Virus record (IMG/VR): IMGVR_UViG_3300034143_000010
Origin: a virus
Strand: one strand, 5' to 3'
DNA: 64,000 bases
Below the pieces are notes generated by a model that was given only the letters and a program-made list of their open reading frames with translations, ran no database searches and was not told the origin of the DNA. The stretch's first letter is position 1. Each line of letters opens with the position of its first letter. Below are positions 2,788 through 24,335 of this stretch, one piece after another. The position numbers and the translations under genes are program-made.

Positions 2788-5349
2788 TTAGAACGGATGC
2801 TCTATTCCAACACCAACATTGTAGAGTTGTGTTACTTCAAGGTCGGTAGGTACTTTCTTCCAGAAGCCCACAGCATCAACCAAGCCATTCAGATATGCGC
2901 CGGGCACGGCTGTTGCTCCGATAATAAAAGGCGCGGTTGAGTCCTTCACCCCGCCAGAGTGCGCCGTCGTGTTAGCCGTGCCGTTATTAACGCGAATACC
3001 TATCACGTTATTAACAGAGTCATGCCAAACAATGATGTGATTCCAGAGGCCCGTAGTTGGAGAGCCGAACACGTTGGCCGTCACGCCTACCGCAGCCGTG
3101 CCAGCCGCCGAGACGTAGAACTCGAAACGGTCAGAGCCCACGGTGTATTGCAAGATGTATTCATTCTCCGTTGAGCCGCCGCCCACGGAAGTCCACTTGC
3201 CTAGTATGACCATGCTCGCCGCTTTGGTTGTTAGCTGAACCCAACAGCTTAAAAAGAAATCAATATCACCCGTTGAGAGCGCGGCATTGTCGGCGCATGA
3301 TAGATACTGCGAACTGGCAGACGCGAAACCAGCAGCATTGCCGACTCTGCCAGCCACTTGCGTTACACCGTTAACGCTCGTTAGATGGTTCGTGCTTACC
3401 GAATCACTGCGCTGCGCGCCCGTCGCCTCGCCTAGTTTCCAGAATGAGACGAGCTTTGATAGTAGAGTGCGCGGACGAGCAAATACGTCTATTGCATATC
3501 CGCTATCAGGAATAACGGCAGCGGCCCCGTTTGAATTGATGAGGCGAACGGTTATCTCGTCAGCCTTTTTGCAGTAGGCCGATGGAGTAATGCCGCCGCC
3601 TAACTCCGTCATAGGCGAGACGGAAACCCCGTCACCTATGCGCGCTCCCGCAAGTGTGGACGTGACGCTGCCCGTCACGCCGAAGATAGTTCCAAAGCTT
3701 AGAACGGGGTTTGATTGCAGATGCGCGCCGCTGGTCGTTGCAAAAGTGTGTGTCAGCGTATTAGACCAAAGCACGTTTCCGAACTCGTCGTACATGCCGA
3801 CTCTTATCTCTACGCTGCCGCCAGCAGGCCAGTACGCAACCGTATCTTCGGGGGCTCTAAAGTCAATAGTCTGCCCGTCCGATGTGGGCCATGTTGACGA
3901 GCCTGCCGTTTTAACCTGTGTTACTGTTTTCGCAACTTTCAGGCGCTCAAGAGTCGTCGTGTTGTGGATGTTGATAAAACTCTCGCTCTGAATCGTCGCG
4001 TCTTTTGTGATCGTGATGGAATTACCGCCAACATCAACGCGGCTAGTATCTGTCGCATAGAGAGAATGATAGCTGAGCGTTGCGCCCCATGTGCCGACGT
4101 TGCCGACCGCATCAACAGGATAGACAATCCAATCGTAATCACTCATCAGCCCGGCCAAGAATTTCGTTGACCGCTCGAAGGTAGTATTCGGCCCCTCGTA
4201 GATCAGCGTTACTGCGCCCGTTGAGAATTTCTGCGCGTAGAGCTTGTAGCCAACTGTGCGCGCGGCATCGCCCGCGTCCGAGCAGGCGTCCCACTTCCAC
4301 CTGTAACGCGGCCCTGCCAAAGTCTCATAGGTGAAGTTCTGAGGAAATGAATTGTTCCACGCGCTTGATTGAAGCTGCGTGACGGCGGTTGACGATGAAA
4401 GCTGGCCGGAAGCCGTCGAGTTGCCGTTGTAATCTTCAACCTTCGTGCGAATCGTAAACGTGCCGACAGCCATCGCGGGGGTTTCTATAACAGCCGCCCC
4501 GCTCGCGTCCGGGTACGCGAAACCGAAGAAGGTTTCAGTCAGGCCGGGCCGGGTAATAAAGACTGCTACTCGCTGGCTTTGCGCGAACGCTCCGAAGGTC
4601 ATCGCTGCGCGGATAACGATAGAGAATGCCCCGCTTGGAGTCCACCCCTTGACCTGTGAGAGCGTAAGCGAAGAAAGCGCGGGCGGCAGAGCTTGCGTGT
4701 ATGTGATCGTCAGCGGAGTTGTAGAGGTCTTGCCCGCGAAGCTATACGAGTAAATATGGTAGGTGCGCGTCCCCGTTGTCGGTGGTACATCGTAAGCGCG
4801 CGTACCGCCAACAATAGCCCTGAAACTATCAACCCCGCCCGTGTATTCATAGAGCAGATAATGCTTAATGGGAGCAGGAGAGGCGGCGGGGGCCGTCCAA
4901 TCAAGCCTAAGTTCAGTATAGGTGGCGTTCGGCGTGGCAACGCCTCCTGTGGGCGGCGAAGGCACAGAAGGCGTATAGACCTGTTCGACTCCCGCTGAAC
5001 TCCCGGCGCTGTTAATGGCATACACCCTATACGTGGTTGCGGTGGTTGGCGCGTTATCTCTGAATTCTCGAATATCACCGCCGTCAACAAAGACCTCAGC
5101 CCCGCTTACTGCCTTATAAACCTCATAGCGCACGCGAGGCGTAGTTGAGGCTGTCCAGCGTCCGATGATAGTTGTGCCTGTTGGCTCATTGGTAACAGTA
5201 AAGCTCGTTGCGGGGTTCGGTATAACATCTTCGGCTTCCAATGATTCTGAGATGTACTTAGCAACCATGCTGCCCGGATGAGAAGGGTTCCCGTTAGGTA
5301 CTGTCTCATCAAATACCATTACCTGATTGTGCAATATCGCCTGTGTCAT
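2788..5349 (-). CDS. Fibronectin-III-repeat and LamG/concanavalin A-like domain protein (putative receptor-binding protein)
   Basis: FN3-like units (RWTAS..YEVYK..YRVYAIN; LDWTAP..YLLY..YHIYSY) and C-terminal LVSFWKLGE...SCWVQ...NGLVDAVGFW. Confidence 0.75.
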   Translation of the reverse strand: MTQAILHNQVMVFDETVPNGNPSHPGSMVAKYISESLEAEDVIPNPATSFTVTNEPTGTTIIGRWTASTTPRVRYEVYKAVSGAEVFVDGGDIREFRDNAPTTATTYRVYAINSAGSSAGVEQVYTPSVPSPPTGGVATPNATYTELRLDWTAPAASPAPIKHYLLYEYTGGVDSFRAIVGGTRAYDVPPTTGTRTYHIYSYSFAGKTSTTPLTITYTQALPPALSSLTLSQVKGWTPSGAFSIVIRAAMTFGAFAQSQRVAVFITRPGLTETFFGFAYPDASGAAVIETPAMAVGTFTIRTKVEDYNGNSTASGQLSSSTAVTQLQSSAWNNSFPQNFTYETLAGPRYRWKWDACSDAGDAARTVGYKLYAQKFSTGAVTLIYEGPNTTFERSTKFLAGLMSDYDWIVYPVDAVGNVGTWGATLSYHSLYATDTSRVDVGGNSITITKDATIQSESFINIHNTTTLERLKVAKTVTQVKTAGSSTWPTSDGQTIDFRAPEDTVAYWPAGGSVEIRVGMYDEFGNVLWSNTLTHTFATTSGAHLQSNPVLSFGTIFGVTGSVTSTLAGARIGDGVSVSPMTELGGGITPSAYCKKADEITVRLINSNGAAAVIPDSGYAIDVFARPRTLLSKLVSFWKLGEATGAQRSDSVSTNHLTSVNGVTQVAGRVGNAAGFASASSQYLSCADNAALSTGDIDFFLSCWVQLTTKAASMVILGKWTSVGGGSTENEYILQYTVGSDRFEFYVSAAGTAAVGVTANVFGSPTTGLWNHIIVWHDSVNNVIGIRVNNGTANTTAHSGGVKDSTAPFIIGATAVPGAYLNGLVDAVGFWKKVPTDLEVTQLYNVGVGIEHPF

Positions 5350-5380: not shown

Positions 5381-5722
5381 AGGCTAAATCAAATCACTGT
5401 TTAGTTTTGGGAGGGTGTTACGCCCCGCTTCTCCCTTGAAACCTTACGCAACCTCGGCACAGAGTTTTTTCAGGGTGTCCGCCTTGACGCCCGCAAAAGC
5501 CTACAGAATTCGAGCCTTTAATTATTCGGAGGGTGTCCGCGCTCCCTCTCACACAGCCTATAGAAAATCCCTCTTTAATTTTTAGGGGGTGTGAGTACCT
5601 TGACGCACTCCGCCGAAAAGAGCTTAGATAAAATGGATAGTTAACTTTTCAGGGGGGTGTTATGGCCTTGCCCCCACAGGCAAAGGGTAGGGCTTTTAAT
5701 GGATTAGTTTGGGGAGGGTGAA
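5381..5722 (-). promoter_or_regulatory. Tandem array 1 of six tripartite promoter-like units (about 60-bp period)
   Basis: Plus-strand GGGTG(T/A) at 5413, 5473, 5531, 5587, 5655, 5716. On the minus strand each unit reads ACACCC-N8-10-YTAA-N14-TANNNT (unit 2 degenerate at YTAA, unit 6 TCACCC). Confidence 0.75.
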
Positions 5723-5977
5723 ATGTTTATAAGCAGGAAAATAATCGCTATCGGATTGCTTTTGCTGGCGCTATGTGCGGCGGGGTGGACTTACGGGCAG
5801 CGGGCAGGGCGCGTTCAATGGGAATATAAAGTCGTCACCCTGAAAGCCGATGCCGCCATTCCAAACGACCTCAACAAATTCGGCGCGGAAGGGTGGGAGT
5901 TGATAGGCTTTAATATTGTCAGTGAAGGTGACAAATACGGCCAAGTCGGCAACTACTATTTCAAGCGTCCAAAATAA
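5723..5977 (+). CDS. DUF4177 family small exported protein
   Basis: Signal peptide then QWEYKVV...LNKFGAEGWEL...YYFKRPK. The RBS GGAGG is supplied by the last array unit. Confidence 0.8.
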   Translation: MFISRKIIAIGLLLLALCAAGWTYGQRAGRVQWEYKVVTLKADAAIPNDLNKFGAEGWELIGFNIVSEGDKYGQVGNYYFKRPK

Positions 5978-6005
5978 AACAGGGGCAAAGCTTTCGCCCT
6001 ACCCC
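5971..6005 (-). terminator. Rho-independent terminator
   Basis: Minus strand agggcgaaagctttgcccct hairpin followed by gttttatttt. Inverted copy at 36918-36952. Confidence 0.75.
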
Positions 6006-6015
6006 ATTAAACCAA

Positions 6016-6034
6016 ATTCGTCAAATTTACGATT
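6016..6034. repeat. AWTCGT-CAAATTT-ACGAWT palindromic repeat, copy 1
   Basis: attcgt caaattt acgatt read directly. Confidence 0.9.
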
Positions 6035-6073
6035 ATCAACTCTCAGTGTTTAGGGTGTGATTGGTCTATCAGT

Positions 6074-7957
6074 TTACCCAGTTGCCTCTATAGGTTCTAT
6101 CGGTAATGTAGCCTCTAAAGTTACAAGTTCGTGGGTTTCTTCTTGGATGGTCATCATGAATAGTTTTTGCCCGTCAGGCGATAAGTACATATAGCCATGC
6201 CCAACTTTACCAAAAGAAGATGGATAACCTTTCTTTAAAAGTTCAAAATGAGCGCCTGAATTTCTCAATTCGCCATTTACCTTGTATTCAGTATAACCTT
6301 GTGTCCAAGTGCCTTCTATGTATTGACCGTTTTGACTAATTGTATAAATTGTTCCGCTGTCTGACTTCCATGTACCACCGAAAACTGGATTGATCTTCTT
6401 TTCAGTAAAAAAAGTATCAGCAAATAATAATACAAATCGTTGTTGCTGTCTGGCAGTAACAAGGGTTTTATCTAAAATGGTAGACTCTTTCTCTTGTAAT
6501 TCAATAATGCTTGCAAGTGCGCTGCCTACGGCCTTATTTATATCGTTTTGCTTCTGCGCTTCCATGAGAAGGTCTTTTGCCTCCTCAAAAAGACCGATAG
6601 AAATGTATTGGTACGCGAGATTGCTCGCAGCTAGAGTGTTCTTTAATTCAACAGCTTTCTTGTAGGCTCTCATTGACAAGCCTAGCATATCAAAAGAGTG
6701 ATACTCTACTCCAAGATTATTCCAAGCTGTTGAATGATCGGGATTAAATTGATGAAGTGTCTTGTAATGTAAAACCGACAAAGGATGTCCTTTGTCTCCT
6801 TCACATGAATAGGAATATCCCGCATTAAAGTGAAGCGTTGCGTCGTTAGGTCTATTCTCGAGCGCTTTCTCTAAGCAAACCGCTCGCAATCTGTAGCTAT
6901 TATCTAATTCATAAAGTGAAGCAAGACCGGAGTAAAGTTCAGATACAGCACTCGGGTCTGTAGTTTCATTAATGGAATCTATAAGAGATTGAAACGCTTC
7001 CTTTTTGCTGCCGGTCTTGTGGAGACACTTGGCCGCGTGTACTTTCGCATATGCACTCTTATAGGGTGTTGGCGCTTTTTGAGCCGCCAGCTCATAGGCT
7101 AATATGGCCTTGTTAAAGTTTTCAGAGAGTTCATAGCTTTGACCTATCCAAAAATTGGCACTTGCCACACCTTCATCCGTAGCTCCCAAGTCTTGTAGTT
7201 TACCTAGAGCTTCTGGGTCTCCAAGCGCAAAGCAAAAATGTAAATAGATAGCATGCTTTCTTATAGACTCTTCTTTATCAGTTTCTACTTCCTCAATCTT
7301 TTTATATATTTCATGTACTTTTGATAAGTCATCTGCAACCCAAGCATCTATCATTTCATTAAATAAAGTATCAGCCGAATCAGTGGTTAGACCTACATTT
7401 TCCTCCCCCTGCTCTATGTTAGCGCCTCCTGTAAGAGATGACGTAGTTTCTATTTTTTCAGTTTGCGCTGCCTCAGATCGAGAGGTGACGCTTTTTACTT
7501 GGTGCTCAAACTCGGGCCAGAACTTTTCAAATAGTGTGTCAATTTGGGCCTCGCTAGGAGCAGTATCACCAGCAGCGATTCTAATAGCAGTTAGAAGTTT
7601 TCTAGTTTCATTTTTTTCTGCTTTAGCGCCATTGAATTGTTCGAGTGGGCCTTTTATATCCTCAAAATCTACATCCAAGAGATAAGGTACAACATGCGAT
7701 TTATCGATCAGCTTAGATAACGCGCCAGCTTCAAAAAATATCCATGGAGCAGCTAAATTATCTGGTGTAAGACATAGTATTCCAAAGTTGCACTGGTTAA
7801 GCACATTTGTCAGTTCGGTTCCCCACCTAGCCCCTTTGTAAATATTGTGGGCCGACATCCATGGCTCTACGGCTTGAATAATAAGAGGAAGAAATCCGCT
7901 CAAAGCTTCAGCGATAATCTTACTTTTATCACCTGACCAACTTATGAATACTTTCAT
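6074..7957 (-). CDS. TIR domain plus TPR-repeat protein (putative anti-phage sensor/effector)
   Basis: N-terminal KVFISWSG...ILCLTPDN..PWIFFEAGALSK (TIR catalytic Glu) and TPR-like helices (AWNNLGVEY...YKKAVEL). AT-rich gene. Confidence 0.8.
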   Translation of the reverse strand: MKVFISWSGDKSKIIAEALSGFLPLIIQAVEPWMSAHNIYKGARWGTELTNVLNQCNFGILCLTPDNLAAPWIFFEAGALSKLIDKSHVVPYLLDVDFEDIKGPLEQFNGAKAEKNETRKLLTAIRIAAGDTAPSEAQIDTLFEKFWPEFEHQVKSVTSRSEAAQTEKIETTSSLTGGANIEQGEENVGLTTDSADTLFNEMIDAWVADDLSKVHEIYKKIEEVETDKEESIRKHAIYLHFCFALGDPEALGKLQDLGATDEGVASANFWIGQSYELSENFNKAILAYELAAQKAPTPYKSAYAKVHAAKCLHKTGSKKEAFQSLIDSINETTDPSAVSELYSGLASLYELDNSYRLRAVCLEKALENRPNDATLHFNAGYSYSCEGDKGHPLSVLHYKTLHQFNPDHSTAWNNLGVEYHSFDMLGLSMRAYKKAVELKNTLAASNLAYQYISIGLFEEAKDLLMEAQKQNDINKAVGSALASIIELQEKESTILDKTLVTARQQQRFVLLFADTFFTEKKINPVFGGTWKSDSGTIYTISQNGQYIEGTWTQGYTEYKVNGELRNSGAHFELLKKGYPSSFGKVGHGYMYLSPDGQKLFMMTIQEETHELVTLEATLPIEPIEATG

Positions 7958-8088
7958 ATTAATACCTTGTCTATAGTGGCATTTGAAGAGAATAGATTTT
8001 GCATGTTATGCTCAACTCTTATTATCTTCCCTTCTTATACACCTTTGAATCAGCTTTAACCTTTGGCTGTCTGCTACTGCTTACCGTT

Positions 8089-8140
8089 TTACTTCTCTTC
8101 AGCTTTCAAATCACGAATCAATCTATCAAATGCTTTCTGA
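8089..8140 (-). pseudogene. 3' remnant of a pentapeptide-TIR gene
   Basis: Encodes KAFDRLIRDLKAEEK*, nearly identical to the end of 33481-34554 (KAFDRLLRDLKAEEK*). Confidence 0.8.
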
Positions 8141-8160
8141 TATGAACCCTGCATCCGTTC

Positions 8161-8811
8161 TTACTTCTTTAAGAGTTCATCTTGAGGAATCAGAGTATCT
8201 AAAGGGTAGCAACTGACGCTAAAGGAATCGGTGTATTCTTTCGCTTTCCAACTTGGTTCTACTAACATTGCTAAATCAGGAGGCGCTGCCCCTAAATAAG
8301 GATATACTTCTACCCCCTTTCTGTGATTGTGAACTACAAGCCAGAACTTTTCACCTAAATAGGGAGTCTTATGAATTGGTGATCTACTGTTTCTTGCTTT
8401 AATTATCCTCTCTGCTTTTGAAGTTAAAGAGTAACAAGTTCTATGAGTACCATCTGTAAAGACGCGGGCGTCGCCTTTCAATAAGCCAAGTTTTTCTAGA
8501 GTTTTAATAGTATTTGCTTCGATGTTGTCTATTTCTGATTTATCATTAATTCTAAACCATCTAATTGTACCTTGATACCATTCTAAAACATTTGCTGTAT
8601 AGTCTAATTCAAGTAGAAGTTGAAGCATTTCACTAATGCTTATTAAAATTTGCTCTTTGGCGGGAGGCTGGAGCGTCTTATCTGCTGCTTGCGCGTGCGT
8701 GATTAACGTTTCAGCTTGAGAGAAATCAATAGCAAGTTTTGCGCCATCTTGTAAGCAGTACTGTAAAGCATCATCCGTATAAGTACTCTGGCATTGGGGA
8801 CATCGTTTCAT
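8161..8811 (-). CDS. Zinc-ribbon N-terminal hypothetical protein
   Basis: MKRCPQCQSTYTDDALQYCLQDG. Start refined to the ATG 1 nt after the HTH stop. Confidence 0.7.
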   Translation of the reverse strand: MKRCPQCQSTYTDDALQYCLQDGAKLAIDFSQAETLITHAQAADKTLQPPAKEQILISISEMLQLLLELDYTANVLEWYQGTIRWFRINDKSEIDNIEANTIKTLEKLGLLKGDARVFTDGTHRTCYSLTSKAERIIKARNSRSPIHKTPYLGEKFWLVVHNHRKGVEVYPYLGAAPPDLAMLVEPSWKAKEYTDSFSVSCYPLDTLIPQDELLKK

Positions 8812-8812
8812 C

Positions 8813-9034
8813 TTACTTCTTACCACCCTTCTTACTCGCCTTTGAACTCTCAGCTTTAACCTTTGGCGGTCTGCCCGGCTTACGATCTTCAACCAGTTTC
8901 AAGTCACCTTCTTGGATGAAGTAATCCCGGCCCATCTTCTCCGCAGGCAAACGCCCTTCTTCAATAAATTGATGTACGCGACGGACGGTAACGTCTAAGC
9001 GGGAGGCAGCTTCTTTTGTCGTCAGAAGGTTCAT
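8813..9034 (-). CDS. Small excisionase-like (HTH_17) DNA-binding protein
   Basis: MNLLTTKEAASRLDVTVRRVHQFIEEGRLPAEKMGRDYFI plus basic tail. TTGACG-17-TATAAG ends 7 nt before the ATG. Confidence 0.85.
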   Translation of the reverse strand: MNLLTTKEAASRLDVTVRRVHQFIEEGRLPAEKMGRDYFIQEGDLKLVEDRKPGRPPKVKAESSKASKKGGKK

Positions 9035-9084
9035 AGTCAGCCTTATACCCCTAAATAAACTCTTCGTCAAGGTGAAGATTTCCA

Positions 9085-9113
9085 TTGACAAACCCTTCAT
9101 CTTGATGTAGAGT
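9085..9113 (+). promoter_or_regulatory. sigma70 promoter for the rightward module operon
   Basis: TTGACA-17 bp-TAGAGT upstream of the 48-aa ORF. Confidence 0.7.
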
Positions 9114-9150
9114 TTTTGTTAGTCGGACATACCACAAAGGAGCATCAAAC

Positions 9151-9297
9151 ATGAACCGCACAGCCAGCACAACCAACATCACGGTCAGCACCACAACGGC
9201 CAAGCCAGCCAGCAAATACGAGATTAAACAGAGAATCGAAGTTGATGCTTTCGGGCGCAAGCGCACGGCTGAATATGTGAAGGGCATACGTATCTGA
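9151..9297 (+). CDS. 48-aa protein ending in GIRI
   Basis: RBS aaggag, then MNRTASTTNITVSTTTAKPASKYEIKQRIEVDAFGRKRTAEYVKGIRI. Paralog at 32961-33107. Confidence 0.75.
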   Translation: MNRTASTTNITVSTTTAKPASKYEIKQRIEVDAFGRKRTAEYVKGIRI

Positions 9298-9388
9298 AAG
9301 TCAATAAGGGGCGGCTCACTGGTCAGAGTGCGCCGCCCCTTGCACATCCACCCGAATCACCGCACAGCCATATGAGGGGAAACAGGAG

Positions 9389-9790
9389 ATGCAAAATAAT
9401 CCTATCACACAACGGGGCAGCGTCGTAGACCTTGCCCTCTGGCGCAGACAATCGGAGCAGACCGACAAGGCGCTCGCCTTCGTCACCGACTCCGCCGAAT
9501 CAATCATCGTTGAATTCCAACTGACAGACGACGAGCAGGGATTCTTTCAGCGCGGTGATCGTATCTACTGCACCCGCACACAGAATCTTCTACACGGCGA
9601 AACAGGGCTCATCCTCACACCCTACGGCTACATGGTCAGGCGCTACTACATGATGCCGGAAGGCTTCGTCATGCTCAGAAGTTTATTGAACAGTCCAGAC
9701 CTGTGCCTTCATCCGAGAGAGGTCGAGATAGTTGGCCGCGCCTATCAACTTGTGCGCTCTCTGAACGGGCCTGAAAGTGAGGCCGCGTGA
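9389..9790 (+). CDS. Stand-alone degenerate S24/LexA-like C-terminal domain protein
   Basis: GDRIYC...GYMVRRY...MLRSLLNSPD...EVEIVGRAYQLVR follows the S24 pattern but lacks catalytic Ser/Lys and any HTH. Confidence 0.6.
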   Translation: MQNNPITQRGSVVDLALWRRQSEQTDKALAFVTDSAESIIVEFQLTDDEQGFFQRGDRIYCTRTQNLLHGETGLILTPYGYMVRRYYMMPEGFVMLRSLLNSPDLCLHPREVEIVGRAYQLVRSLNGPESEAA

Positions 9791-10146
9791 TGAAAAGACG
9801 AACGCGTAAGCGAGAGCGCCGGAAGATGACGGCGAAACAGGCCAAGGGATTCAGATTGCATAGCGTGAGTTGCGCCGTCGAGCTTTACGGAGCAGAGAGC
9901 GCCACGGCGAAAGGCATGGAATTGGTCAACACCGTACTGATGAGCGGGAGAAGGGACAGGAGGGCTCATGCTCTGATGGAGTTGATCTATTTGCTCTCGA
10001 CAAGGAAGGCGAGGGGCGAGCGGGCACAGATGGTCTTCTATTGCCTGTTTCAAGCGGGCCTTTTCCTTGACAGATGGCGGACGTTCTCCAGCAGGGTTGC
10101 GGCCTACATGAAAACAAGAGACAAACGGGTTCTTCACGTCAAATAA
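9787..10146 (+). CDS. Hypothetical basic protein (module gene)
   Basis: 119-aa ORF with a near-identical paralog at 32109-32462. Confidence 0.7.
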   Translation: MMKRRTRKRERRKMTAKQAKGFRLHSVSCAVELYGAESATAKGMELVNTVLMSGRRDRRAHALMELIYLLSTRKARGERAQMVFYCLFQAGLFLDRWRTFSSRVAAYMKTRDKRVLHVK

Positions 10147-10237
10147 AAGGGGCGTGAAGAGGAAGGGGCGCGGGCTCTCCCGCCAAAAGAATCGGGAGCT
10201 TGAAGCGAGCAGAGCCCGCGCCTCTCAGATAAAAGCG

Positions 10238-10738
10238 ATGGATACTTACAGAGAATTACCATTAGTCAATTCAGAGCAGATGGCGAGAGTTGATCTTGAA
10301 GATTACCTTCGCCTCAATCGCTATCGCTGGCATCTCACGCGGGTAGGTAAATACTCATACGTCTATCGGCTCAGGTGTATGGCCGGACGCTCCACGCAAA
10401 TAATGCTTCATCATGCCATCTTAGACTTACCGCAAGGCGTGCGCGTGAGGCGCATCAATAAAGAGACTCTTGATTATCGCCGCGCTAATCTGAGAATCAC
10501 TGACGGCTCTATCTATCGCAATCCACATTCAAAGCGTTGCCCCTATGCTGTGTGCATCACGATTGACGGGAAGCACTTCTACGTGGGGAGTTGGCCGACA
10601 AAGGAATGGGCGAAGAGGGCGAGAGATGCGGCGGCGGAAGCGGCAAAGACGTTGCGCGGTCGGGGGCTCTCGGAGAGGGCTATTCAGCGCGAGCTTGATC
10701 TGGCGGCGGGCCGGGATGTGAGGAAGAAAGCGGCATAG
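10238..10738 (+). CDS. Degenerate HNH-AP2 domain DNA-binding protein
   Basis: LHHAILDLPQGVRVRRINKETLDYRRANLR (HNH_3 pattern with DH replaced by RR) and ITIDGKHFYVGSWPTKEWAKRARDAAA (AP2-like). Confidence 0.7.
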   Translation: MDTYRELPLVNSEQMARVDLEDYLRLNRYRWHLTRVGKYSYVYRLRCMAGRSTQIMLHHAILDLPQGVRVRRINKETLDYRRANLRITDGSIYRNPHSKRCPYAVCITIDGKHFYVGSWPTKEWAKRARDAAAEAAKTLRGRGLSERAIQRELDLAAGRDVRKKAA

Positions 10739-10747
10739 TTTAACTAT

Positions 10748-11590
10748 ATGAGTAGAAGGCTCACACATAAAACTTGCACCGACTGCGGCGAGACAAAACC
10801 GCGCTCGGATTTTAGCTACGGCACAAAGGGCGAGACGCGACCATTCTGCGCGGATTGTCGGGACTTGCGAAACGTGCGGCGATATAAGGCTTGCACAGAA
10901 GGTCGGATGCGATACCTTGCCTCTATCAAAAACACTTCTGAGGTTAAAACCCTAGAGTGCCGCGAATGTAAATCAGTAAAACCTGTTTATGAATTTGCCA
11001 CGTATCTTAACTCAGAGGGTGAGCGGAAGCATTATAGAAGATGTAAGAGTTGCTACAACGAAGCCCAAAGACTTCTTCGCTTAAATTCAGGCTATACAAC
11101 AAAGCCTAGAATAAAAACAAAACCTTTCTTCTGTGCAAAACTTGGGCTGCTCACCAAGCTATGCTCTAAATGCGGCGAGGTCAAACCGTTAGACGAATTC
11201 CCGAAACTGTCTATTAAACGTGGATACCATACCGCCTGCGCCGTTTGCATGCGACGGGCGCACAAAGAATGGCTGAAAAAGAATCCCGACAAGTATATCG
11301 CGAATCGAATAAAGAGAATTCAAAGATTGCTTAGTGCGCCTTTAACAGAGGAAATTAACAGGGATGAAATTATCGAAAGGGATGCGCGCACTTGCTATCT
11401 CTGCGGGCGTAAACTAGAGGATGAAGTAATCACTTTAGATCATGTTATACCCCTTGCGCGGGGCGGCTCGCATACCGCTTCAAATCTTCGCGTAGCCTGT
11501 TTGAAGTGTAACAGCCGAAAAGGCGCAAAGCTTTTGCATGAATTAGATTGGATTAACGCTGAAACTTATGCAACCGCTCAAGCCCTGTAA
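10748..11590 (+). CDS. HNH endonuclease with N-terminal CxxC zinc-finger repeats
   Basis: CYLCG...TLDHVIPLARGGSHTASNLRVACLKCNSRKG and repeated CxxCGExKP units. Confidence 0.88.
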   Translation: MSRRLTHKTCTDCGETKPRSDFSYGTKGETRPFCADCRDLRNVRRYKACTEGRMRYLASIKNTSEVKTLECRECKSVKPVYEFATYLNSEGERKHYRRCKSCYNEAQRLLRLNSGYTTKPRIKTKPFFCAKLGLLTKLCSKCGEVKPLDEFPKLSIKRGYHTACAVCMRRAHKEWLKKNPDKYIANRIKRIQRLLSAPLTEEINRDEIIERDARTCYLCGRKLEDEVITLDHVIPLARGGSHTASNLRVACLKCNSRKGAKLLHELDWINAETYATAQAL

Positions 11591-12305
11591 AAAATGCGGC
11601 GAGATGAAGCCGTTGGATGCTTTTCATAAAGACCCCGGCACACGTGACAGACGGAAAAACACGTGTCGCAAGTGCCGCCAATACAGAGAATGGATGCCTC
11701 TTACTTCAAGGCCGTGCTTGAAGTGTGGAGAGGTTAAGCCTCTAACTGAATTTCTGCCTAAATCAAGACAGCCCAAAAAGCCCGGACTTGCGCAGGTAGA
11801 GCCCAACTGCCGACCATGCTACAACGCCCTTCAAAGGGCTCGCTACAGAGAGAAGCACCCGGCGCGTCCAGAGCAGCCGCCTCCCACAACTAAAAAGTGC
11901 AAAGGATGTGGTCTAGTTAAGCCGCATTCTGAATTCTATTTCTATAAAAAGAATGGTCGTATCCGATGGCATTCACCATGTAAGACCTGCTACGTAGTTG
12001 TAAACCGCAATCGTCAAGGTGTTAGACGTGCCCGGTTAAATTCCGCGCCAAAAATTGAAAAGATTGATCGTAACGAAATAATCAGGAGGGATAACGGCGT
12101 CTGCTACCTGTGCGGGCAAGATATACCTGTGAATGAAATATCTTTAGATCACGTCATCCCGCTAGCGCGTGGTGGCTCGCATACAAAGGACAATCTTCGC
12201 GCAGTCCATAAAAGATGTAACTCTCGAAAAAAGGCTAAGCTTCCGAGCGAGCTTAATTGGCTTCCGCGCCCCTCTCTTCTTGGCCTTAACCTCACAGGGG
12301 AATAA
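11568..12305 (+). CDS. HNH endonuclease with N-terminal CxxC zinc-finger repeats (paralog)
   Basis: CYLCG...SLDHVIPLARGGSHTKDNLRAVHKRCNSRKK. Confidence 0.88.
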   Translation: MQPLKPCKKCGEMKPLDAFHKDPGTRDRRKNTCRKCRQYREWMPLTSRPCLKCGEVKPLTEFLPKSRQPKKPGLAQVEPNCRPCYNALQRARYREKHPARPEQPPPTTKKCKGCGLVKPHSEFYFYKKNGRIRWHSPCKTCYVVVNRNRQGVRRARLNSAPKIEKIDRNEIIRRDNGVCYLCGQDIPVNEISLDHVIPLARGGSHTKDNLRAVHKRCNSRKKAKLPSELNWLPRPSLLGLNLTGE

Positions 12306-12309
12306 CACA

Positions 12310-15300
12310 TTACCTTGAAAGCACCCCCGCGATTGATTCCGCTAAGTCCCTATGACCTCTCTTCTGATTGAAGCTTGAGCCGCGTGGTTTGGGGACGGTG
12401 ACGTTAATATGGTTGATTGTGGTGTTACCGCCCTGTTGAGCTTGCGGCGAACCCAGTGGAATGATCTGGCCGTCAACGTCGGGCTTGAAATACTCCGTGC
12501 CGTTCTCGTTGACCTCGTAGAGAGTCCCGGCTTCTACCGGGCCGCCGAGAGCGCGCGGGCCACCGAAATTCTTTAGAGTTGGCGGCGAGGTTGGCCTGCC
12601 GGTATTCGGGCCTTCATCTGCGCTACCTCCGCCGCCATCGCCCATGCTACCGATAGCGCCACTAATTGCACCGCTGATGACAGCATTCAGGAGCCCGCCC
12701 AAGAAGCTTTGCTCATGCGGCGTCAACAGCCTCTCCATCGTAGATTCAAGTTGATGGATGCTGTTGTTCGTAGCGTTCCCCTGATTGGCAATCGTCGCCT
12801 CTATGTCCTTCCCTGTACGCTCTATCGTTTCATTGATCGAATCGGTGAGGCTTGGCGCTATCTTGCTCAGGTCTGCGGCCTCAGTTGATACAGGGCCGTC
12901 CTTATTGAGAAACTTGGATTGAAGGCCGGATATTTTCTTATGTAGTGAATCGCTGCTAAGCAAGTCGGTGAGCGAACCGAGCCCCGCATGGCTTCTTAGA
13001 GCAAGCGTGTTTTCGATTGTGGCGCGTGTGTTGTCCGCGATAACCGCGTCCGGCGAGCTATCATTTTTGACGCCTAGAATGTTGCCGAATAGCTTCTCGA
13101 ATACGCCGCCTATTAAGCCCTTGTTCTTATCACCGTCTCCAAACAGTGCATCATTGATTTTCTGAGCAAAGCTGTTGGCGATGCCGCGCTGGACGGACTC
13201 AAGGAAACCGAGGGCGAAGTTCTTTCCGGCTGTGACACCTTTCCCTCGCATGAGGTCTAGCAGTGAGTCACTGATAATGCCTTCCGTATCTTTGCTAAGA
13301 TTTTCAACCGCGTCTTTTGTTCGTGCCTCAGCCATTTCTGCGGCGTCCTGCGCTTTTTTAATCAATGGCGGTAAATTCTCAAAAGCGCTCGCCGTTTCAA
13401 GGGCCGGAAGCTGTAGGGCTCGTAATGCACGCGGGACATAGTTGATTGATAACTCGTTAGCACTTCTCTCTGTATCAATGATTTCGCTGTGCGCTCGCTT
13501 GAGTGCGTCAAATGACGGGTTAATCTTTGAAAAATCAATATCAGGAATGTAATCAACAGTCGGTATTGATGCGACGATGCGCTGTGATGCTGCAATTGCT
13601 TCACGGACTCTCAACTCTTCTTTAAGGTAGGCAAGATACTCTTCGGCGAGTTCGGTTTTCTTCTCTACCGTAAGGTTATATGCCTCTTCTGCACCGATGC
13701 GTCGCTGAAAAAAATCTTCCATCAAACGGATGTCGTCAGCGGTCAACACAAGTGCGTCTTTAGTGCTTTTCTGCTTGTTGATTCGATTGGCGCGACCTTG
13801 CAGTTCGCCTGATTGCACCCCTTCAAAGAGTGAGAATAGGTCATCTGTAATACCACTTGTGCCGACCGCTTCTTCGGGCACTATCTGCCAGGCAGGGGGG
13901 AATTTTGATGGTGGCGCGTGTCGCTCCGTATCAGACGACGGCATCACTGAGACGGGCACAAGGTTGTCGGATTGCGTCCGACTAAGACTTGCCATAATGC
14001 TCTGAATATATTTTTGTGTCTCTTTGTAGGGTGGAATGCCGTGGTATTTCTCAACCGCGCCCTCGCCCGCGTTATATGCAGCAAGGGCTAAGCGAACATC
14101 GCCAGCAAATTTATCTAGCAAGTCAGCTAGGTAGCGCGTGCCGCCTTCAATGTTCTGTGCGGGGTCAAACGGGTCATTGACGCTATACCTTCTGGCCGTG
14201 CCGTCCATCAACTGCATGAGCCCCTTCGCGCCTTTAGGCGAAACAGCATCAACCCTTCCGCGGGATTCCTGCATAATGACGGCACGGATTAGGTCAGCAG
14301 AAAGCCCCGTGCGCTTGGCATTTTCGAGGATGAGCTTTTCAATCTCAGGCGGGAACGGTTTTCTCATCCCTTCTTGCAGGCCCAGATAGAAACCCTCGGC
14401 AGCGAATAAGCCAAGTTTGATGAACTCTTTCGCTGGCGAGCGCGCGCCGATAGCGTCAGCGGTAGCCGTGATGGCGTCGTGCCCCATATTCGCGGCAGCG
14501 CCCATCACGCCCTTAGTGCCTTCGTTTATACCTTGAGCCAAGCCAGCCGCGACATTTAATCCGAGAGCGTTAATATCTCCGCTCATCACCGCCTTGACGG
14601 TGTTCTCCATCGAATCAAAGAGCCTGCTTGTGCCCGTGCTTACCCCTCCAACAAGACGATCTGCCGCCTCGCTGTTTACCCCTTGCAACATTAAGCCAAG
14701 AACTTGCTTGTAACGCTCGAATGCCGGGCCGCTCGCCGTTCCTAGCTGGCGACTAAGCGCCGTGCCAAGATTCGTTTCAATGCCGCTCGCTGTCTTCTCG
14801 CTGATCTCTTTACCAAGTCCCCCAAAGTCCTTATCAATTCCGCGAAGGATGACAGCGACGGCAGTACGGGCATTAAGCAAGCCATGCTCCGCCATTTCCT
14901 GAACTTTGGAGATTCGTTTTTCTTCTGTAAGATTGCCGAGCTTTGAATCTGTGCGCGCGATTTCGTCAGCAAGATATCTCCACGCCGGGATGCCCGCCTC
15001 TACGAGCTGGCGACTCATCTCTTCCGCAGAGACTTTTCCTTTATTCCACATCTGACCGAGCGCGAGAGTAATTGAGTCAATCTTTTGTGCCGCCTCTGCA
15101 CCAGTCTTGCCTGCCCCTGCGGCGGCATCGCCGGCGGCGCGCAGGATAGGAATAACCTGTTTGGCGTTGAAGCCCATCGCCAAAAGGCGTTGCGCCCCTG
15201 TATAGACGCCGGGCAAGTCCATCGGTGACTCTCGCTCAAAAGCGGCGAGTTGGCCCATGAAGTCTTTCGCGGCTTTTCCATCTTTGAGTATCTGAGTAAA

Positions 15301-15732
15301 ACCGAGCGCGACTTCTTCCTGCATTCTGCGGTAGTCAAATCCCAGCTTGATGCCGGAAGTCATCGCAGAAGTGACGCCGCCGATGATCGTAGTGATCGCG
15401 CTTGCCGCGAGGTTCCCCCCTGTTACCGCAAGGACGCCGCCCGAAAGGCCGCTTCCGAGTATGTTACTGAGGTTTAATTTGTCTGTGTTTTTGAGCCCTA
15501 AAATCTTGCGGGTGAGTTCGCCAATATAGCCTGTAGTGCGCTCAGCTTGACGGCCTGCGTCCCGCAGTTCGCGGTTAAAGCCTTTCATGGAGCGCTCTGA
15601 TAAACCTATGGCTTTTCCGTGTTCTCTTCCACGCGACTCAGCGCGGGCCATCCCTCTTTCATATTCAGACAGGCCACGATTAAAATCGCTCAAGTCTGCT
15701 TTGAAGAATTGTGTGAGTGTGCCAAGTTCCAA
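12310..15732 (-). CDS. Tail tape measure protein with lytic transglycosylase (SLT) domain
   Basis: Tape-measure motifs (LALGQMWNKGKVSAEE...LVEAGIP) and AVIMQESRG...GAKGLMQLM...ALAAYNAGEG. TTG start after GGAG is inferred (ORF open to 15765). Confidence 0.93.
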   Translation of the reverse strand: MELGTLTQFFKADLSDFNRGLSEYERGMARAESRGREHGKAIGLSERSMKGFNRELRDAGRQAERTTGYIGELTRKILGLKNTDKLNLSNILGSGLSGGVLAVTGGNLAASAITTIIGGVTSAMTSGIKLGFDYRRMQEEVALGFTQILKDGKAAKDFMGQLAAFERESPMDLPGVYTGAQRLLAMGFNAKQVIPILRAAGDAAAGAGKTGAEAAQKIDSITLALGQMWNKGKVSAEEMSRQLVEAGIPAWRYLADEIARTDSKLGNLTEEKRISKVQEMAEHGLLNARTAVAVILRGIDKDFGGLGKEISEKTASGIETNLGTALSRQLGTASGPAFERYKQVLGLMLQGVNSEAADRLVGGVSTGTSRLFDSMENTVKAVMSGDINALGLNVAAGLAQGINEGTKGVMGAAANMGHDAITATADAIGARSPAKEFIKLGLFAAEGFYLGLQEGMRKPFPPEIEKLILENAKRTGLSADLIRAVIMQESRGRVDAVSPKGAKGLMQLMDGTARRYSVNDPFDPAQNIEGGTRYLADLLDKFAGDVRLALAAYNAGEGAVEKYHGIPPYKETQKYIQSIMASLSRTQSDNLVPVSVMPSSDTERHAPPSKFPPAWQIVPEEAVGTSGITDDLFSLFEGVQSGELQGRANRINKQKSTKDALVLTADDIRLMEDFFQRRIGAEEAYNLTVEKKTELAEEYLAYLKEELRVREAIAASQRIVASIPTVDYIPDIDFSKINPSFDALKRAHSEIIDTERSANELSINYVPRALRALQLPALETASAFENLPPLIKKAQDAAEMAEARTKDAVENLSKDTEGIISDSLLDLMRGKGVTAGKNFALGFLESVQRGIANSFAQKINDALFGDGDKNKGLIGGVFEKLFGNILGVKNDSSPDAVIADNTRATIENTLALRSHAGLGSLTDLLSSDSLHKKISGLQSKFLNKDGPVSTEAADLSKIAPSLTDSINETIERTGKDIEATIANQGNATNNSIHQLESTMERLLTPHEQSFLGGLLNAVISGAISGAIGSMGDGGGGSADEGPNTGRPTSPPTLKNFGGPRALGGPVEAGTLYEVNENGTEYFKPDVDGQIIPLGSPQAQQGGNTTINHINVTVPKPRGSSFNQKRGHRDLAESIAGVLSR

Positions 15733-15837
15733 AATAATCACTCCGAAATAAATATCGGCGCACACACCACCCGCGCCTCTGTGATTCTCTGACCCTGCTT
15801 TTAATCGTCGTTTGAATCACATCTCACCGCCCACGTC

Positions 15838-16667: not shown

Positions 16668-17990
16668 TTAATTAAGGCTCGCCAGGTTGTTCACGAAGTA
16701 GGTCTCAAACCACGATCCCATGTCGTCGTCTTCGACTAGTTCAAATGTAAAAACATAAGAATCTATGCCGTCAGTGTCGCCGTTGGGCACGGCGCCCTTG
16801 AGCTTGAGCGGCATATCGAAGACCCACTCGAAATGGTCGGTGGCACCCGGAATCTCCGCGCCAATCGCATCAACCCTCACGTACTGCGTGGGGACGCCGT
16901 CTACGCCGTTCTCTTTCGCCGTCGCATAGAGAGCATCGCTATAGGTGTTGGCTTCCATCGTGATCACGCACGTCGGCTCCATCGCCTGCTCTCCGGGCTC
17001 TTTCCACGAGGCGTGCGAGCGGCCCATGACCCTCTTCGGGATATATTTAGGCGGAAGTGTGATCTGCGCGGTGAAGTTGTCTTCGATCTCGGTTGTGCCG
17101 ATGTCATTGTAGGCTTCGTCCAGATAGATGTTGATCTGGGAGCCTGAGACGGGAGCCGAGTCCAATTCCGTCGCGCCGGCGCTGCCCTGAGTTGTGGTCG
17201 AGACAGCGAAAGTGCCACCGGTCACGCTCGTCGAGTCAAACGTCATCTGGGTGAGGTTCTGCGCGGCGAGCGCGCCCCTGAACTTGACTACGATGGCGGT
17301 GTTGGGGAGCGGCCCCCCTGTCACCGTCACGTCGCCGACGGCGATATTCGAGAGTGCTTCGAGCGCGGCCTTGATCGTCGCGGCGGATGCGTTATAAGCG
17401 ATGGCCGTCGTGGTCTGCCCTGAGTAGGTGATGGTGAAGGTGCCAGCCGTCGGTGTGCCGGTCTTCGCGATCTGCTGCACCTCGTTGCGGGCCAGATTCA
17501 TCGTCACGCCGGGCGTCACACCCTTCGCAAGAATTTCCCCCGAAACCTGCGCGCCCTTGCGCGAGAGGTTTATGACAATCGAGTTGAAGAGAGCATCGTT
17601 GGTCTGATGACCTCGTTGAAGGGAGCCGCGCTGAAGAGTAAACAGCACATAGGGGTCGATGTCGCCGAGCGCAGGCATGTAGAGCCATTTCTTTCCGCCG
17701 CCCGCGAGCGTATCGGGACCGGAGCCGCCGGAGCCCACATAAGACTCGAAGAAGTAGAGACTCTCGATAAAGGAGAGCACGCCGCTGTAATCACCCTTCC
17801 CCGTGATATCGTTAACGACGATGGTCTTATTGACCTTGGAGCCCGCCGGGCGGTAGCTATTTGTCTCAAGCTCTTCCGTGAAATTCACGGTCGTGTTAGA
17901 GAACTGCCTGGTAGGCGTGACGGGTGTGTCCGTTGCCGACTGAGCGCCGATTAAGACCTTCTGATTGACTGTTGAATTAGCACCGCTCAT
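16668..17990 (-). CDS. Major tail (tube) protein with internal accessory domain
   Basis: Position after the tail terminator gene. Internal NEVQQI...GTFTITYSGQTTTAIAYNASAATIKAALEAL segment. Confidence 0.8.
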   Translation of the reverse strand: MSGANSTVNQKVLIGAQSATDTPVTPTRQFSNTTVNFTEELETNSYRPAGSKVNKTIVVNDITGKGDYSGVLSFIESLYFFESYVGSGGSGPDTLAGGGKKWLYMPALGDIDPYVLFTLQRGSLQRGHQTNDALFNSIVINLSRKGAQVSGEILAKGVTPGVTMNLARNEVQQIAKTGTPTAGTFTITYSGQTTTAIAYNASAATIKAALEALSNIAVGDVTVTGGPLPNTAIVVKFRGALAAQNLTQMTFDSTSVTGGTFAVSTTTQGSAGATELDSAPVSGSQINIYLDEAYNDIGTTEIEDNFTAQITLPPKYIPKRVMGRSHASWKEPGEQAMEPTCVITMEANTYSDALYATAKENGVDGVPTQYVRVDAIGAEIPGATDHFEWVFDMPLKLKGAVPNGDTDGIDSYVFTFELVEDDDMGSWFETYFVNNLASLN

Positions 17991-19841: not shown

Positions 19842-20975
19842 TTAGCCGAGCAGGATGGCGGTGTGTTCCGGCTTGATGTTCGACGCACCCCAGGCGAGAG
19901 AAATCTCGTAGCGGATGCGGCGATACTGCTTGTACATCGCGACCTCGAACGTGAGGCCCGAGCGCGGGTCGGTGACGAGCATGCGGTCATCCGCCATGTC
20001 GCCCTCTTCCGGCAATGCGGGCGGACGTGCGACAAGCACCATGGCGCTTCTGTGGAAGGCCATGTTCGCCTCGTAGTTATTGCCAACTGTCAGAGCGGCG
20101 TTATCGGCCAGAGCGGCGCGCAGGCCCGGCTTATTGAGCGAGAGAATGTTCGCCGCGAGTGCGGTGCCAACGATGTACTTGTTGGTGTCTCCCGCGCCCG
20201 TCACGACATCGCCAGCGACGATGGTGCCCGTGCCCGTATCGACCGTGATGTCGGTGTCGCCGATGGCGTAGGCAGCGTGGTTCACCTGATAGTTTGCGCC
20301 CGTGCCTTTGGTGTGCGTCTTGACCTGTGCTGACTCTCTGATCATCAAGCCGAACAGGTTCAGCAGCACGCCCTGGCGAAGCAACGTATCGCCGCCTGCC
20401 TCGTTCGCCTTGTTGAGTTGCGAGAGGCTGCGCATGTTCGCGCCAGCGGTCGTGCCGATGATCAGGTGCAGGTCGCCTTCCGGCGCGCCGTTGTCCTTCA
20501 AAATCTTCAACACTTGCGCGGCTTCCGCGAGATTGGTCGCAAACGGGGTCGTGCCGGCAGTGCCGTAGGCGCGCGAAGAACGCTTATAGAGCAGGGCCAC
20601 ATCCGACTCGACCTCGTTGACGAGCGTCCTGATGGCCTGGGCGATCTGCTGCACGCGGATGGCTCTGTAGCCGGGACCGGTGTTGATGCCCTTCTGCTCT
20701 TCGCCCGTCCAGCGGAACGGGACAGTGCGCGCCTTCGTGATCGAAAGCTGGGCGTTGCCGATCACCTGATCACCGGTGTCGGGCGGGGTCGTGCCGGGCG
20801 TGACATCTTCGGCGGAAGCCGCCGGTGTGATGGGCACGCGAATCGTCTGGCCGACGGCAGCGCGCTCGGCAGCTGCGTCGAGCGTCACGGCGGGAATGAA
20901 CCCGACCAGCTCACGCGACACAACGTCGAGAGCCTCAAACAGGTCGGGCGTCAGTGCAGTCAATGTATTTGACAT
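19842..20975 (-). CDS. Major capsid protein, P22 coat-like
   Basis: LDVVSRELVGFIPAV...VGQTIRVP...LTFEVAMYKQYRR.RYEISLAWG. Confidence 0.88.
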   Translation of the reverse strand: MSNTLTALTPDLFEALDVVSRELVGFIPAVTLDAAAERAAVGQTIRVPITPAASAEDVTPGTTPPDTGDQVIGNAQLSITKARTVPFRWTGEEQKGINTGPGYRAIRVQQIAQAIRTLVNEVESDVALLYKRSSRAYGTAGTTPFATNLAEAAQVLKILKDNGAPEGDLHLIIGTTAGANMRSLSQLNKANEAGGDTLLRQGVLLNLFGLMIRESAQVKTHTKGTGANYQVNHAAYAIGDTDITVDTGTGTIVAGDVVTGAGDTNKYIVGTALAANILSLNKPGLRAALADNAALTVGNNYEANMAFHRSAMVLVARPPALPEEGDMADDRMLVTDPRSGLTFEVAMYKQYRRIRYEISLAWGASNIKPEHTAILLG

Positions 20976-21026: not shown

Positions 21027-21809
21027 TCAGTCAACGACGGTGCCGCCCGATTTGACGTGCGCCATCTGATCCGATGGGGCCATCTGCTCGAACGCGTCGC
21101 GTTTGACGGTTTTGGCTCCGCCCGAACCGCCGCCACTGCCGCCCGCCGGAGCACCGCTCCCGCCTGCGCCCGAAGCCCCGTAGAACTTCGGCTTTTGCGA
21201 TTTGAATTCTTCACCCCAGAACCTATCGAGAGTCATGCTGCTCTCGTCGCCCTCTTTGTCGAGCACCACGGGCTGGCGCTTGTCGTTGAGCCTGAATCGA
21301 TGAGACGTGATCTTCAGTACATCCTCGATGTCGTCCGCGAGCACTCCGGCCTTCAGCGCCGCGTCTCTCACCGGGCTGATCAGTTCGTACCCATCGAGCC
21401 GGGAATCGCGCTCGGCGAGCTGCTTCTTTAATTCAGCCGCCTCTGCGTCGAATTCTTCCGAGCGCTTCTTCATCAAGCGGTCGAACTCATCTTCCCGTTT
21501 CTTCAGCAGCCGTTCGAACTCGCCCTTGTCTATCAGGGCCTTTTCGTCCAGCTCGTTGAGCTTTTTGAGAGCCTCGCGGGCCTTCTCCGGATCAATGTCC
21601 CTGTACTTTTCAAGCTCGGCCCTGGCAGCCTTACGCTCTTCGCGCTCGTGCTTTAACGCTCCCGCCTGCTCCTCTTTATCGTCCCACTCGAATTCTTCGA
21701 GCTTCTCCGGGTCAACGGAAAAACTGCCATCTTTCTCGACATACAGCCCGCGGTATGCCTCCGGCACCTCGTCGAGCTTCGTAACCTTCTTAAATTTGAA
21801 CTTTGCCAT
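21027..21809 (-). CDS. Capsid scaffolding protein
   Basis: Charged coiled coil, ALKHEREERK...YRDIDPEKAREAL, Gly-rich C-terminus. Immediately upstream of the capsid gene. Confidence 0.8.
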   Translation of the reverse strand: MAKFKFKKVTKLDEVPEAYRGLYVEKDGSFSVDPEKLEEFEWDDKEEQAGALKHEREERKAARAELEKYRDIDPEKAREALKKLNELDEKALIDKGEFERLLKKREDEFDRLMKKRSEEFDAEAAELKKQLAERDSRLDGYELISPVRDAALKAGVLADDIEDVLKITSHRFRLNDKRQPVVLDKEGDESSMTLDRFWGEEFKSQKPKFYGASGAGGSGAPAGGSGGGSGGAKTVKRDAFEQMAPSDQMAHVKSGGTVVD

Positions 21810-21895
21810 TCGAGCACCGCTCCAAATGTTTTTGAGTCGCGCGAGCACCGCCCGCGGGACAAGATTCGCCGCCCCTGAGGCGGCCAGAGGATGTC

Positions 21896-21938
21896 AGACT
21901 AAGGGATATGGGAATTTAATTATTCGGAGGGTGTCCGC
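21896..21938 (-). promoter_or_regulatory. Single copy of tripartite late-promoter-like motif
   Basis: Minus strand GCGGACACCC-tccgaataa-TTAA-N14-TAGTCT, upstream of scaffold/capsid. Confidence 0.75.
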
Positions 21939-24296: not shown

Positions 24297-24335
24297 GTTA
24301 TTGTGTATCCCCCACAATCAGACAATTGCTGAATC

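Follow-up and report, generated by a model that had tools for sequence, protein, structure and literature searches.

Six-unit arrays of putative late promoters downstream of accessory insertions in a prophage of a probable Blastocatellia host

The late operon and its accessory blocks

The window, by which we mean the whole 64,000-nucleotide stretch of DNA that was analysed (IMG/VR virus record IMGVR_UViG_3300034143_000010), is a siphovirus-type prophage with its virion genes on the minus strand. The most likely host is an acidobacterium of the Blastocatellia, uncultured and living in soil or biocrust, and the nearest capsid genes, which are 89% identical, are found in Pyrinomonadaceae and Blastocatellia MAGs. 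The virion genes and the elements interspersed with them at the tail end of the operon are as follows:

25829-27655, minus strand: terminase
24336-25832, minus strand: portal
21027-21848, minus strand: scaffold
19842-20975, minus strand: major capsid
16668-17990, minus strand: major tail
12310-15765, minus strand: tape measure
5723-12305, mixed strands: accessory block 1 (6.6 kb), between the tape measure and array 1
5381-5721, read on the minus strand: array 1
5349 down to 1177, minus strand: tail-tip genes (853-aa lectin-domain protein, DUF2460 protein, baseplate hub)
2788-5349, minus strand: the 853-aa tail-tip protein, with Laminin_G_3 at its C-terminus; its gene is the first one that array 1 faces

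When the 853-aa protein was compared against 400 genomes of the host's family, only its C-terminal lectin domain found relatives, and none of these was syntenic. Block 1 encodes a DUF4177 protein (plus strand), a TIR-TPR protein (minus), a 243-aa protein (minus), a three-gene module (plus, 9138-10737) and two HNH proteins (plus), and contains a terminator at 5982-6005. A second block, a 7.5-kb insertion with defence genes, a paralogous version of the three-gene module and a TnpB gene, separates the lysis genes from the HD-GYP and terminase genes. Both of the arrays described below sit just downstream of these accessory or defence insertions, which break up the late operon.

The two blocks are paralogous and mutually inverted. 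Their common 1.6-kb three-gene module is 92% identical (9138-10737 versus 33120-31523), and short boundary pieces are also held in common (5971-6045 versus 36952-36878; 8025-8155 versus 34618-34489). The TIR cargo differs, with TIR-TPR in one block and a pentapeptide-TIR protein plus DUF4062 in the other. A remnant of the DUF4177 5' end, in which the ATG has become ACG, lies at 30265-30295 between array 2 and the TnpB gene (30393-31514), which suggests that an insertion sequence replaced the DUF4177 gene there. One contig of run X1 connects, at full depth, position 5723 with the opposite strand at 10728; this may represent a TnpB-less form of block 2, but the shorter flank of the junction measures only 36 nt. 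The stretch from 22815 to 31569 (accessory part, portal, terminase, HD-GYP, array 2 and TnpB) is absent from G000, whose contigs end at repeats (C30, C11, C20). Further away, in the early region, there are genes for ThiF (E1-like) and JAB-domain proteins (49781-51492), which are also present in G401, a 47-kb IMG/VR contig that figures in the comparisons below.

Array 1 and the other copies of its motif

Sequence inspection and a repeat search both recover six co-oriented units in array 1, read on the minus strand, with a start-to-start spacing of 56-68 bp (~58 bp). They occupy the 373-bp gap between the ATG of the minus-strand 853-aa gene (5349) and that of the plus-strand DUF4177 gene (5723). 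The number and spacing of the units agree with those given by a first-pass annotation of this DNA, and the six minus-strand hexamers are exactly those that it had listed:

5381-5418, minus strand: unit 1, proximal; ACACCC at 5418-5413, a CTAA box and the hexamer TAGCCT at 5386-5381
5441-5478, minus strand: unit 2; GGACACCC box, no YTAA box, hexamer TAAGGT at 5446-5441
5498-5536, minus strand: unit 3, the top-scoring unit; hexamer TAGGCT at 5503-5498
5555-5592, minus strand: unit 4; hexamer TAGGCT at 5560-5555
5621-5660, minus strand: unit 5, near-identical to unit 2 of array 2; hexamer TAAGCT at 5626-5621
5684-5721, minus strand: unit 6, distal and degenerate (7-10 bits); TCACCC, hexamer TACCCT at 5689-5684

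The general layout of a unit on the minus strand is (GG)ACACCC-N8-10-YTAA-14 nt-TAnnnT. The three-box pattern proposed in the first-pass annotation holds for the outer boxes, since CACCC with a TAnnnT 31-33 nt downstream is present in all six units, and the A/T-rich AAYTAA box is found in five of them. However, in its strict form (ACACCC-N8-10-YTAA-N13-15-TANNNT) it is matched by only four, with unit 2 lacking the YTAA and unit 6 combining TCACCC with a weak score. Over the entire window the strict pattern has nine matches, as against 0.01 expected from shuffles, and all nine are on the minus strand. Tandem Repeats Finder reported no repeat in array 1 because conservation is confined to the boxes and the units are too degenerate for it.

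Every C-rich box contains CCTCC, which is an anti-Shine-Dalgarno sequence. The complement of the C-rich box of unit 6 is the Shine-Dalgarno sequence of the plus-strand DUF4177 gene (5712-5722; ATG 5723), and in read-through transcripts the GGAGAGG of the 853-aa gene might be bound by the C-rich box of unit 1. As the G-rich complement of the C-rich box, the first of the three boxes, resembles a Shine-Dalgarno sequence, small plus-strand ORFs or repeated translation-initiation regions were considered for the array; they were rejected because the frame is not kept between units and because all 15 copies of the motif (see below) are co-oriented with minus-strand genes. Plus-strand promoters for DUF4177 were likewise rejected, as array 1 offers no acceptable sigma-70 match in that direction.

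Units 1-5 are identical, with zero differences, in contigs from three independent metagenome studies, and these contigs display neither length variants nor internal joints. Array 1 is therefore not an assembly artefact; it is a real and stable feature. Recombination between the units, which the first-pass annotation had thought might point to a guide array or recombination sites, is not seen in these contigs.

A profile of the units identifies 15 copies of the motif in the window, namely the six of array 1 and the following:

29926-30265, minus strand: array 2, six units, upstream of HD-GYP, terminase and portal and just downstream of the TnpB insertion
21895-21938, minus strand: S21, a single copy upstream of scaffold and major capsid, with orthologous copies in the related phages L013, L014, G401 and L144
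38836-38881, minus strand: S38, a single copy that immediately follows the winged-helix gene and precedes the holin and lysis genes
39871-39913, minus strand: S39, a single copy with the hexamer TATAAG at 39876-39871

All 15 are on the late-gene (minus) strand and lie in intergenic DNA upstream of late-strand genes. S39 is the only one with a near-consensus -10, and the core of unit 3, GGACACCCTCCGAATAATTAAA, recurs without change in the single copies at 21.9 and 38.8 kb. Two profile HMMs, one of them broader, found no copy in the 5.5 Mb of the host genome outside the prophage; hence, the motif is neither a host promoter type nor a host repeat. In IMG/VR, exact core patterns of the window type gave no match or one unrelated match, and the core of the relatives retrieved only contigs already under comparison. 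The JGI metagenome contigs had no match to the portal protein or to the exact core, and blastn of the array 1 region against 50,697 phage records also returned none.

The last unit of array 2 is cut off at the ATG of the HD-GYP gene (29937), such that the end of its A/T box forms the start codon (AATTAAATG, 29937-29960). This gene has no Shine-Dalgarno sequence before the ATG, and its N-terminus aligns with that of the G401 orthologue. Since the last unit overlaps the ATG it cannot drive HD-GYP, implying that at least some of the units are passengers.

The motif search across related genomes that the first-pass annotation had recommended yields single copies at orthologous late positions. Related phages in Blastocatellia MAGs and in metagenomes have them ahead of a VRR-NUC gene paired with the winged-helix gene, immediately behind the latter, and ahead of scaffold and capsid. 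Arrays and inserted blocks are missing from all the relatives that we examined. G401 has the gene order of the prophage over a span that begins with the early genes and extends to the major tail and chaperone genes (the major capsid is 89% identical); in the tape-measure and tail-tip genes, similarity to the prophage is weak or absent. The motif occurs exactly three times in G401, ahead of VRR-NUC, immediately behind the winged-helix gene and ahead of scaffold, and its lysis genes, HD-GYP and terminase are consecutive with nothing between them. L013 and L014 keep the pre-scaffold copy, and in L014 nothing separates the tape measure from the tail genes behind it. L144 has a third copy, located in front of a non-homologous scaffold/capsid module and just after a small reverse-oriented gene (L144 12246-12689), a layout that resembles a single-copy version of a restart behind an insert.

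The pre-scaffold copy is followed by a scaffold 5' UTR with two hairpins, the stem sequences of which differ between three phages (window 21849-21895, L014 4100-4181, L013 425-505). The second hairpin has a conserved CGGTG loop and is followed by AAAACATTTGGAG with a conserved GGAG.

These gene orders can be modelled as insertion of the blocks into a previously continuous late operon, and the suggestion in the first-pass annotation that late transcription must restart after an oppositely transcribed block fits such a model, given that the colinear G401 has neither the insertions nor the arrays. Against a formerly continuous operon stands the strong divergence between the prophage and its relatives in the tape-measure and tail-tip modules.

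The combination of a repeat with a variable spacer, along with the placement of array 2 about 100 nt from the TnpB gene, is also the layout of an RNA-level or recombination element, such as a guide or small-RNA array or a set of site-specific recombination sites. However, the repeats of array 1 are only 66-88% alike in the repeat search, no Rfam family matches the array (a permissive threshold gave a chance HDV-like match outside it), and neither array folds better than shuffled sequence (z of +0.9 and +1.6). TnpB is missing at array 1, we identified no recombinase gene next to either array, and cas genes were not seen. Together with the single copies upstream of late genes in the relatives and the absence of internal joints from the metagenome contigs, this leaves such an element with an almost negligible probability.

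Promoter geometry and the candidate activator

We compared 29 sites of the motif from at least five distinct phages. Among these, CACCC(C)TC is nearly invariant, and in 25 of them the distance from the first C of CACCC to the start of a TAnnnT is 31-33 nt; in the other four, this position is taken by TATAAG, TATAAA, GATACT or TCTACT. Counted from the assumed -10, the C-rich box (GG)ACACCC(C)TCC would span about -45 to -37, with CACCC at about -44 to -40, and the A/T-rich box AAYTAAA about -31 to -25. Array 1 has no TTGACA-type -35, the corresponding position reading GAATAA, AAAAAC and the like, and a sigma-70 scan finds no minus-strand promoter within it. Both the lack of a -35 and the placement of ACACCC near -40 to -45 had been noted in the first-pass annotation and stand.

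The position of the hexamer can be assessed at the VRR-NUC gene, whose start codon lies 7-8 nt after it in three phages:

Window 39863: GTG, 7 nt after the S39 hexamer
G401 19464: ATG
L134 4483: GTG

In all three, conserved residues (GGLPF) come right after the start and there is no space for a Shine-Dalgarno sequence. This fits a leaderless mRNA and supports the hexamer being a -10 element; the VRR-NUC gene appears to be leaderless in these phages, which is our strongest indirect evidence on where transcription starts. At the head of the early operon, the minus strand instead carries canonical sigma-70-type promoters (TTGACA-17/18-TAnnAT), one being TTGACA-18-TAATAT with a TG (59444-59473) and the other TTGACA-17-TAGCAT (59732-59760). 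Hence, the host polymerase would read ordinary promoters in this prophage, and the late motif constitutes a distinct class.

Between S39 and S38 lies the gene for a candidate reader of the motif:

38886-39332, minus strand: 148-aa winged-helix protein of a small uncatalogued family, candidate late activator

The family has 13 representatives among 1.84 billion proteins. We inspected six loci with readable flanks (L134/L144, L135, L136, L137, L139 and L142), in which the winged-helix protein is 25-46% identical to that of the window. In each of the six, the CACCC(C)TC box flanks the gene at the usual distance from a -10-like hexamer; typically, one copy is upstream of the winged-helix operon and a second immediately follows it, in front of the genes for lysis and packaging. 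In the predicted model of the 148-aa protein (pLDDT 80), a winged helix at the C-terminus is preceded by long N-terminal helices. A fold search gave only a generic likeness to MarR, TFE-alpha and TubR domains, and Pfam only weak MarR_2 and HTH_24 matches with no Mor/C signature; PHROGs gave nothing informative, and no late-regulator family was recovered for it. The conserved linkage suggests that this protein is likely to be the late activator. It is from synteny only that we infer its binding to the box, and any late regulator would occupy that slot.

Taken together, the best reading of the units is that they are activator-dependent late promoters without a -35 element. This interpretation had been offered in the first-pass annotation, and it gains support from the specificity of the motif to the phage, the co-orientation of its copies, the rigid spacing (25 of the 29 sites), the orthologous positions and the VRR-NUC start 7-8 nt past the hexamer. 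Two other kinds of arrays were considered and rejected. An iteron or centromere array does not fit the fixed -10 geometry and the single late copies, and the neighbours are tail, packaging and cargo genes; a pac/terS binding array, considered for array 2, is at odds with the presence of the same motif in the tail, capsid and lysis regions.

The motif could also be read by another specificity factor and not via the winged-helix protein, for example a phage sigma factor, a host ECF sigma factor or a phage RNA polymerase. The conserved core is long (~23 nt), a trait that promoters of phage-specific polymerases also have; the host genome has genes for about 20 sigma factors of the ECF type, and many prophage proteins are without a family assignment. 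Nevertheless, we hold this to be highly improbable. No Sigma70_r2 (sigma-70 region 2) domain was found in the prophage contigs, and the only ORFs of more than 800 aa in the window are those for the tape measure and the Laminin_G_3 (lectin-domain) tail protein. A search with PF00940 (T7-type RNA polymerase) had no match in the genome, nor did it have any in the control genomes. Further, the third box obeys the TAnnnT rule of sigma-70, with TATAAG and TATAAA at S39 and its orthologue. By sequence reading, the box spacings fit neither ECF promoters, where the -35 and -10 are ~16-17 nt apart, nor sigma-54 promoters (TGGCAC-N5-TTGC, with the GG and GC 10 nt apart, i.e. GG-N10-GC), as GGACACCCTCCGAA has no GC at the required distance. 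T7-like promoters were rejected on account of the spacing and because no factor was found, the controls of the polymerase search being likewise without a match.

Alternatively, the winged-helix protein might bind the units without these being promoters, in which case they could form a titration or timing sink, load a Q-like antiterminator, or separate the cargo from the tail genes as an insulator or roadblock. With 12 of the 15 sites in two clusters, the arrays would dominate the occupancy of the regulator; their spacing, which is below one polymerase footprint, limits simultaneous initiation; and in distant family members no other element is as well conserved as the C-rich box. However, a pure binding-site array has no need of the -10-like hexamer that is found at a fixed distance in nearly every unit. 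Moreover, the single copies are exactly where promoters are needed, with one of them giving a leaderless gene start, and an antiterminator would make restart sites behind the insertions unnecessary. We therefore regard non-promoter binding sites as improbable and retain the late-promoter reading.

Origin and proposed role of the arrays

We consider it probable that array 1 is a functional battery of six tandem late-promoter modules, five of them good and one degenerate. The box-to-hexamer distance is right in every unit, as would be expected if the multiplicity is selected, but recently imported functional promoters would look alike. Weighing against a full battery are the degeneracy of unit 6 and the lack of an A/T box in unit 2. 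In addition, as the unit spacing is less than one polymerase footprint, neighbouring units cannot hold open complexes simultaneously, and additive output is hence not guaranteed.

The two arrays are homologous, and their comparison points to an origin by recombination at the conserved core. Both are found at mosaic junctions beside the paralogous cargo blocks. Their two distal units, along with ~30 nt of the DUF4177 5' end, are ~93% identical, while the four proximal units align but share only the boxes, and a junction, GCGTCAAGGCGGACACCCT, recurs at different unit boundaries in arrays 1 and 2. This raises the alternative that the late promoter motif is real but its six-fold stacking is a neutral by-product of recombination, with only the proximal one or two units of consequence. 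The conserved 20-24 bp core would then provide the homology for the exchange of modules or cargo, with one copy left behind by each exchange. The truncation of array 2, whose last unit breaks off precisely where the HD-GYP ATG stands, and the sufficiency of single copies in the relatives are in line with such a process. On the other side, all 12 array units keep CACCC and TAnnnT at 31-33 nt despite differing intervening sequence, which looks like selection, but a recent import of functional promoters would give the same picture; also, units 1-5 of array 1 are identical in the three independent metagenomes, without length variants or internal joints. On balance, we judge a neutral origin of the stacking to be rather unlikely, and we proceed with the battery of late promoters as the preferred reading.

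From the anatomy, phage specificity, strand, spacing and conservation of the motif, and from its linkage to the winged-helix gene, we infer protein binding, start sites and the activity of individual units along the following lines. Each unit would offer the host sigma-A RNA polymerase a minimal -10 (TAnnnT) with no -35, in place of which there are the C-rich and A/T-rich boxes. Early transcription, or basal firing of S39, would supply the winged-helix protein, which would bind the C-rich box and recruit or stabilise the polymerase, thereby replacing the missing -35 contact. Being made from S39, it would establish a positive feedback and then activate lysis from S38; HD-GYP, packaging and portal from array 2; scaffold, capsid, tail and tape measure from S21; and the tail tip from array 1. 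The last of these would restart late transcription behind block 1; it would be needed because transcripts from S21 must cross this 6.6-kb block, which has opposing genes and ends at the terminator at 5982-6005. Array 2 is proposed to have the same role behind the 7.5-kb insertion of block 2. The stacking of weak promoters with G/C-rich -10 hexamers may raise the rate of initiation, and it predicts nested transcripts starting near 5374, 5434, 5491, 5548, 5614 and 5677. The first of these, from unit 1, would begin ~25 nt 5' of the start codon of the 853-aa gene and ahead of the Shine-Dalgarno sequence GGAGAGG of this gene.

More tentatively, and with the odds somewhat against us, we propose that the batteries are an adaptive restart cassette that lets a temperate phage carry oppositely transcribed defence islands in its late operons without starving the virion genes. 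In this proposal they would be read by a previously unknown family of winged-helix late activators that defines the late regulon of a phage group, at least some of whose members come from Acidobacteriota. If so, the locus presents a proposal for a complete late regulon, comprising a 40-nt three-box module, a candidate activator whose family is uncatalogued, predicted start sites and, for feedback, a copy that has a stronger -10. Batteries placed directly behind the insertions could account for how a prophage tolerates defence islands amid its virion operons, which bears on the spread of 'moron' and defence cargo in phage genomes. The pair of promoter and activator could also serve as an orthogonal expression switch in a phylum with few genetic tools.

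Several known systems resemble parts of this arrangement. The late promoters of Mu, Plys, PI, PP and Pmom, are activated by the protein C (PMC2582627, PMC4461284). As in Mu, the promoters here are dispersed, head separate late units and have a -10 hexamer but no -35, with the small phage activator of Mu binding upstream of and over the -35 region. Unlike in Mu, the candidate activator is a winged-helix protein without the Mor/C signature, the box sequence is unrelated, and the promoters of Mu are single rather than stacked six-fold. The middle promoters of T4 combine a MotA box at -30 with a sigma-70 TAnnnT -10 (PMC2988021). They thus share with our units the minimal TAnnnT and a phage-specific box in place of the -35 at a fixed spacing; however, T4 needs AsiA to remodel region 4 of sigma, no homologue of AsiA or MotA was detected in the prophage, and the box here reaches to about -45. 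In the Gram-positive temperate phages, RinA, ArpU and LtrC are late activators (PMC3152322, PMC3753634). Like them, the winged-helix protein is a small candidate activator encoded at the end of the early region, directly upstream of lysis and packaging genes, with a presumed target just downstream of its gene. They differ in usually having one late promoter before terS, as opposed to the three or more dispersed ones here, and in belonging to another protein family, the hosts in our case being Acidobacteriota.

With respect to stacking, the nearest parallels are the early promoters A1-A2-A3 of T7 and P1-P2 of the rRNA operons, which are tandem strong promoters, two or three in number, activator-independent and ~100 bp or more apart. 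With these and other tandem promoters known, the statement in the first-pass annotation that no phage example exists of such a promoter battery was too strong. A literature search found no described transcription programme for phages of Acidobacteriota. Like the T7 and rRNA promoters, the arrays place several complete promoters in one orientation ahead of one operon; they differ in consisting of six units of the activator type at ~58 bp, duplicated at two places, each beside inserted cargo. Six complete activator-type units at this spacing are unusual. What appears to be new is the pairing of the motif with its putative regulator, its occurrence in phages of Blastocatellia MAGs and unassigned metagenome contigs, and the six-unit batteries behind cargo insertions.
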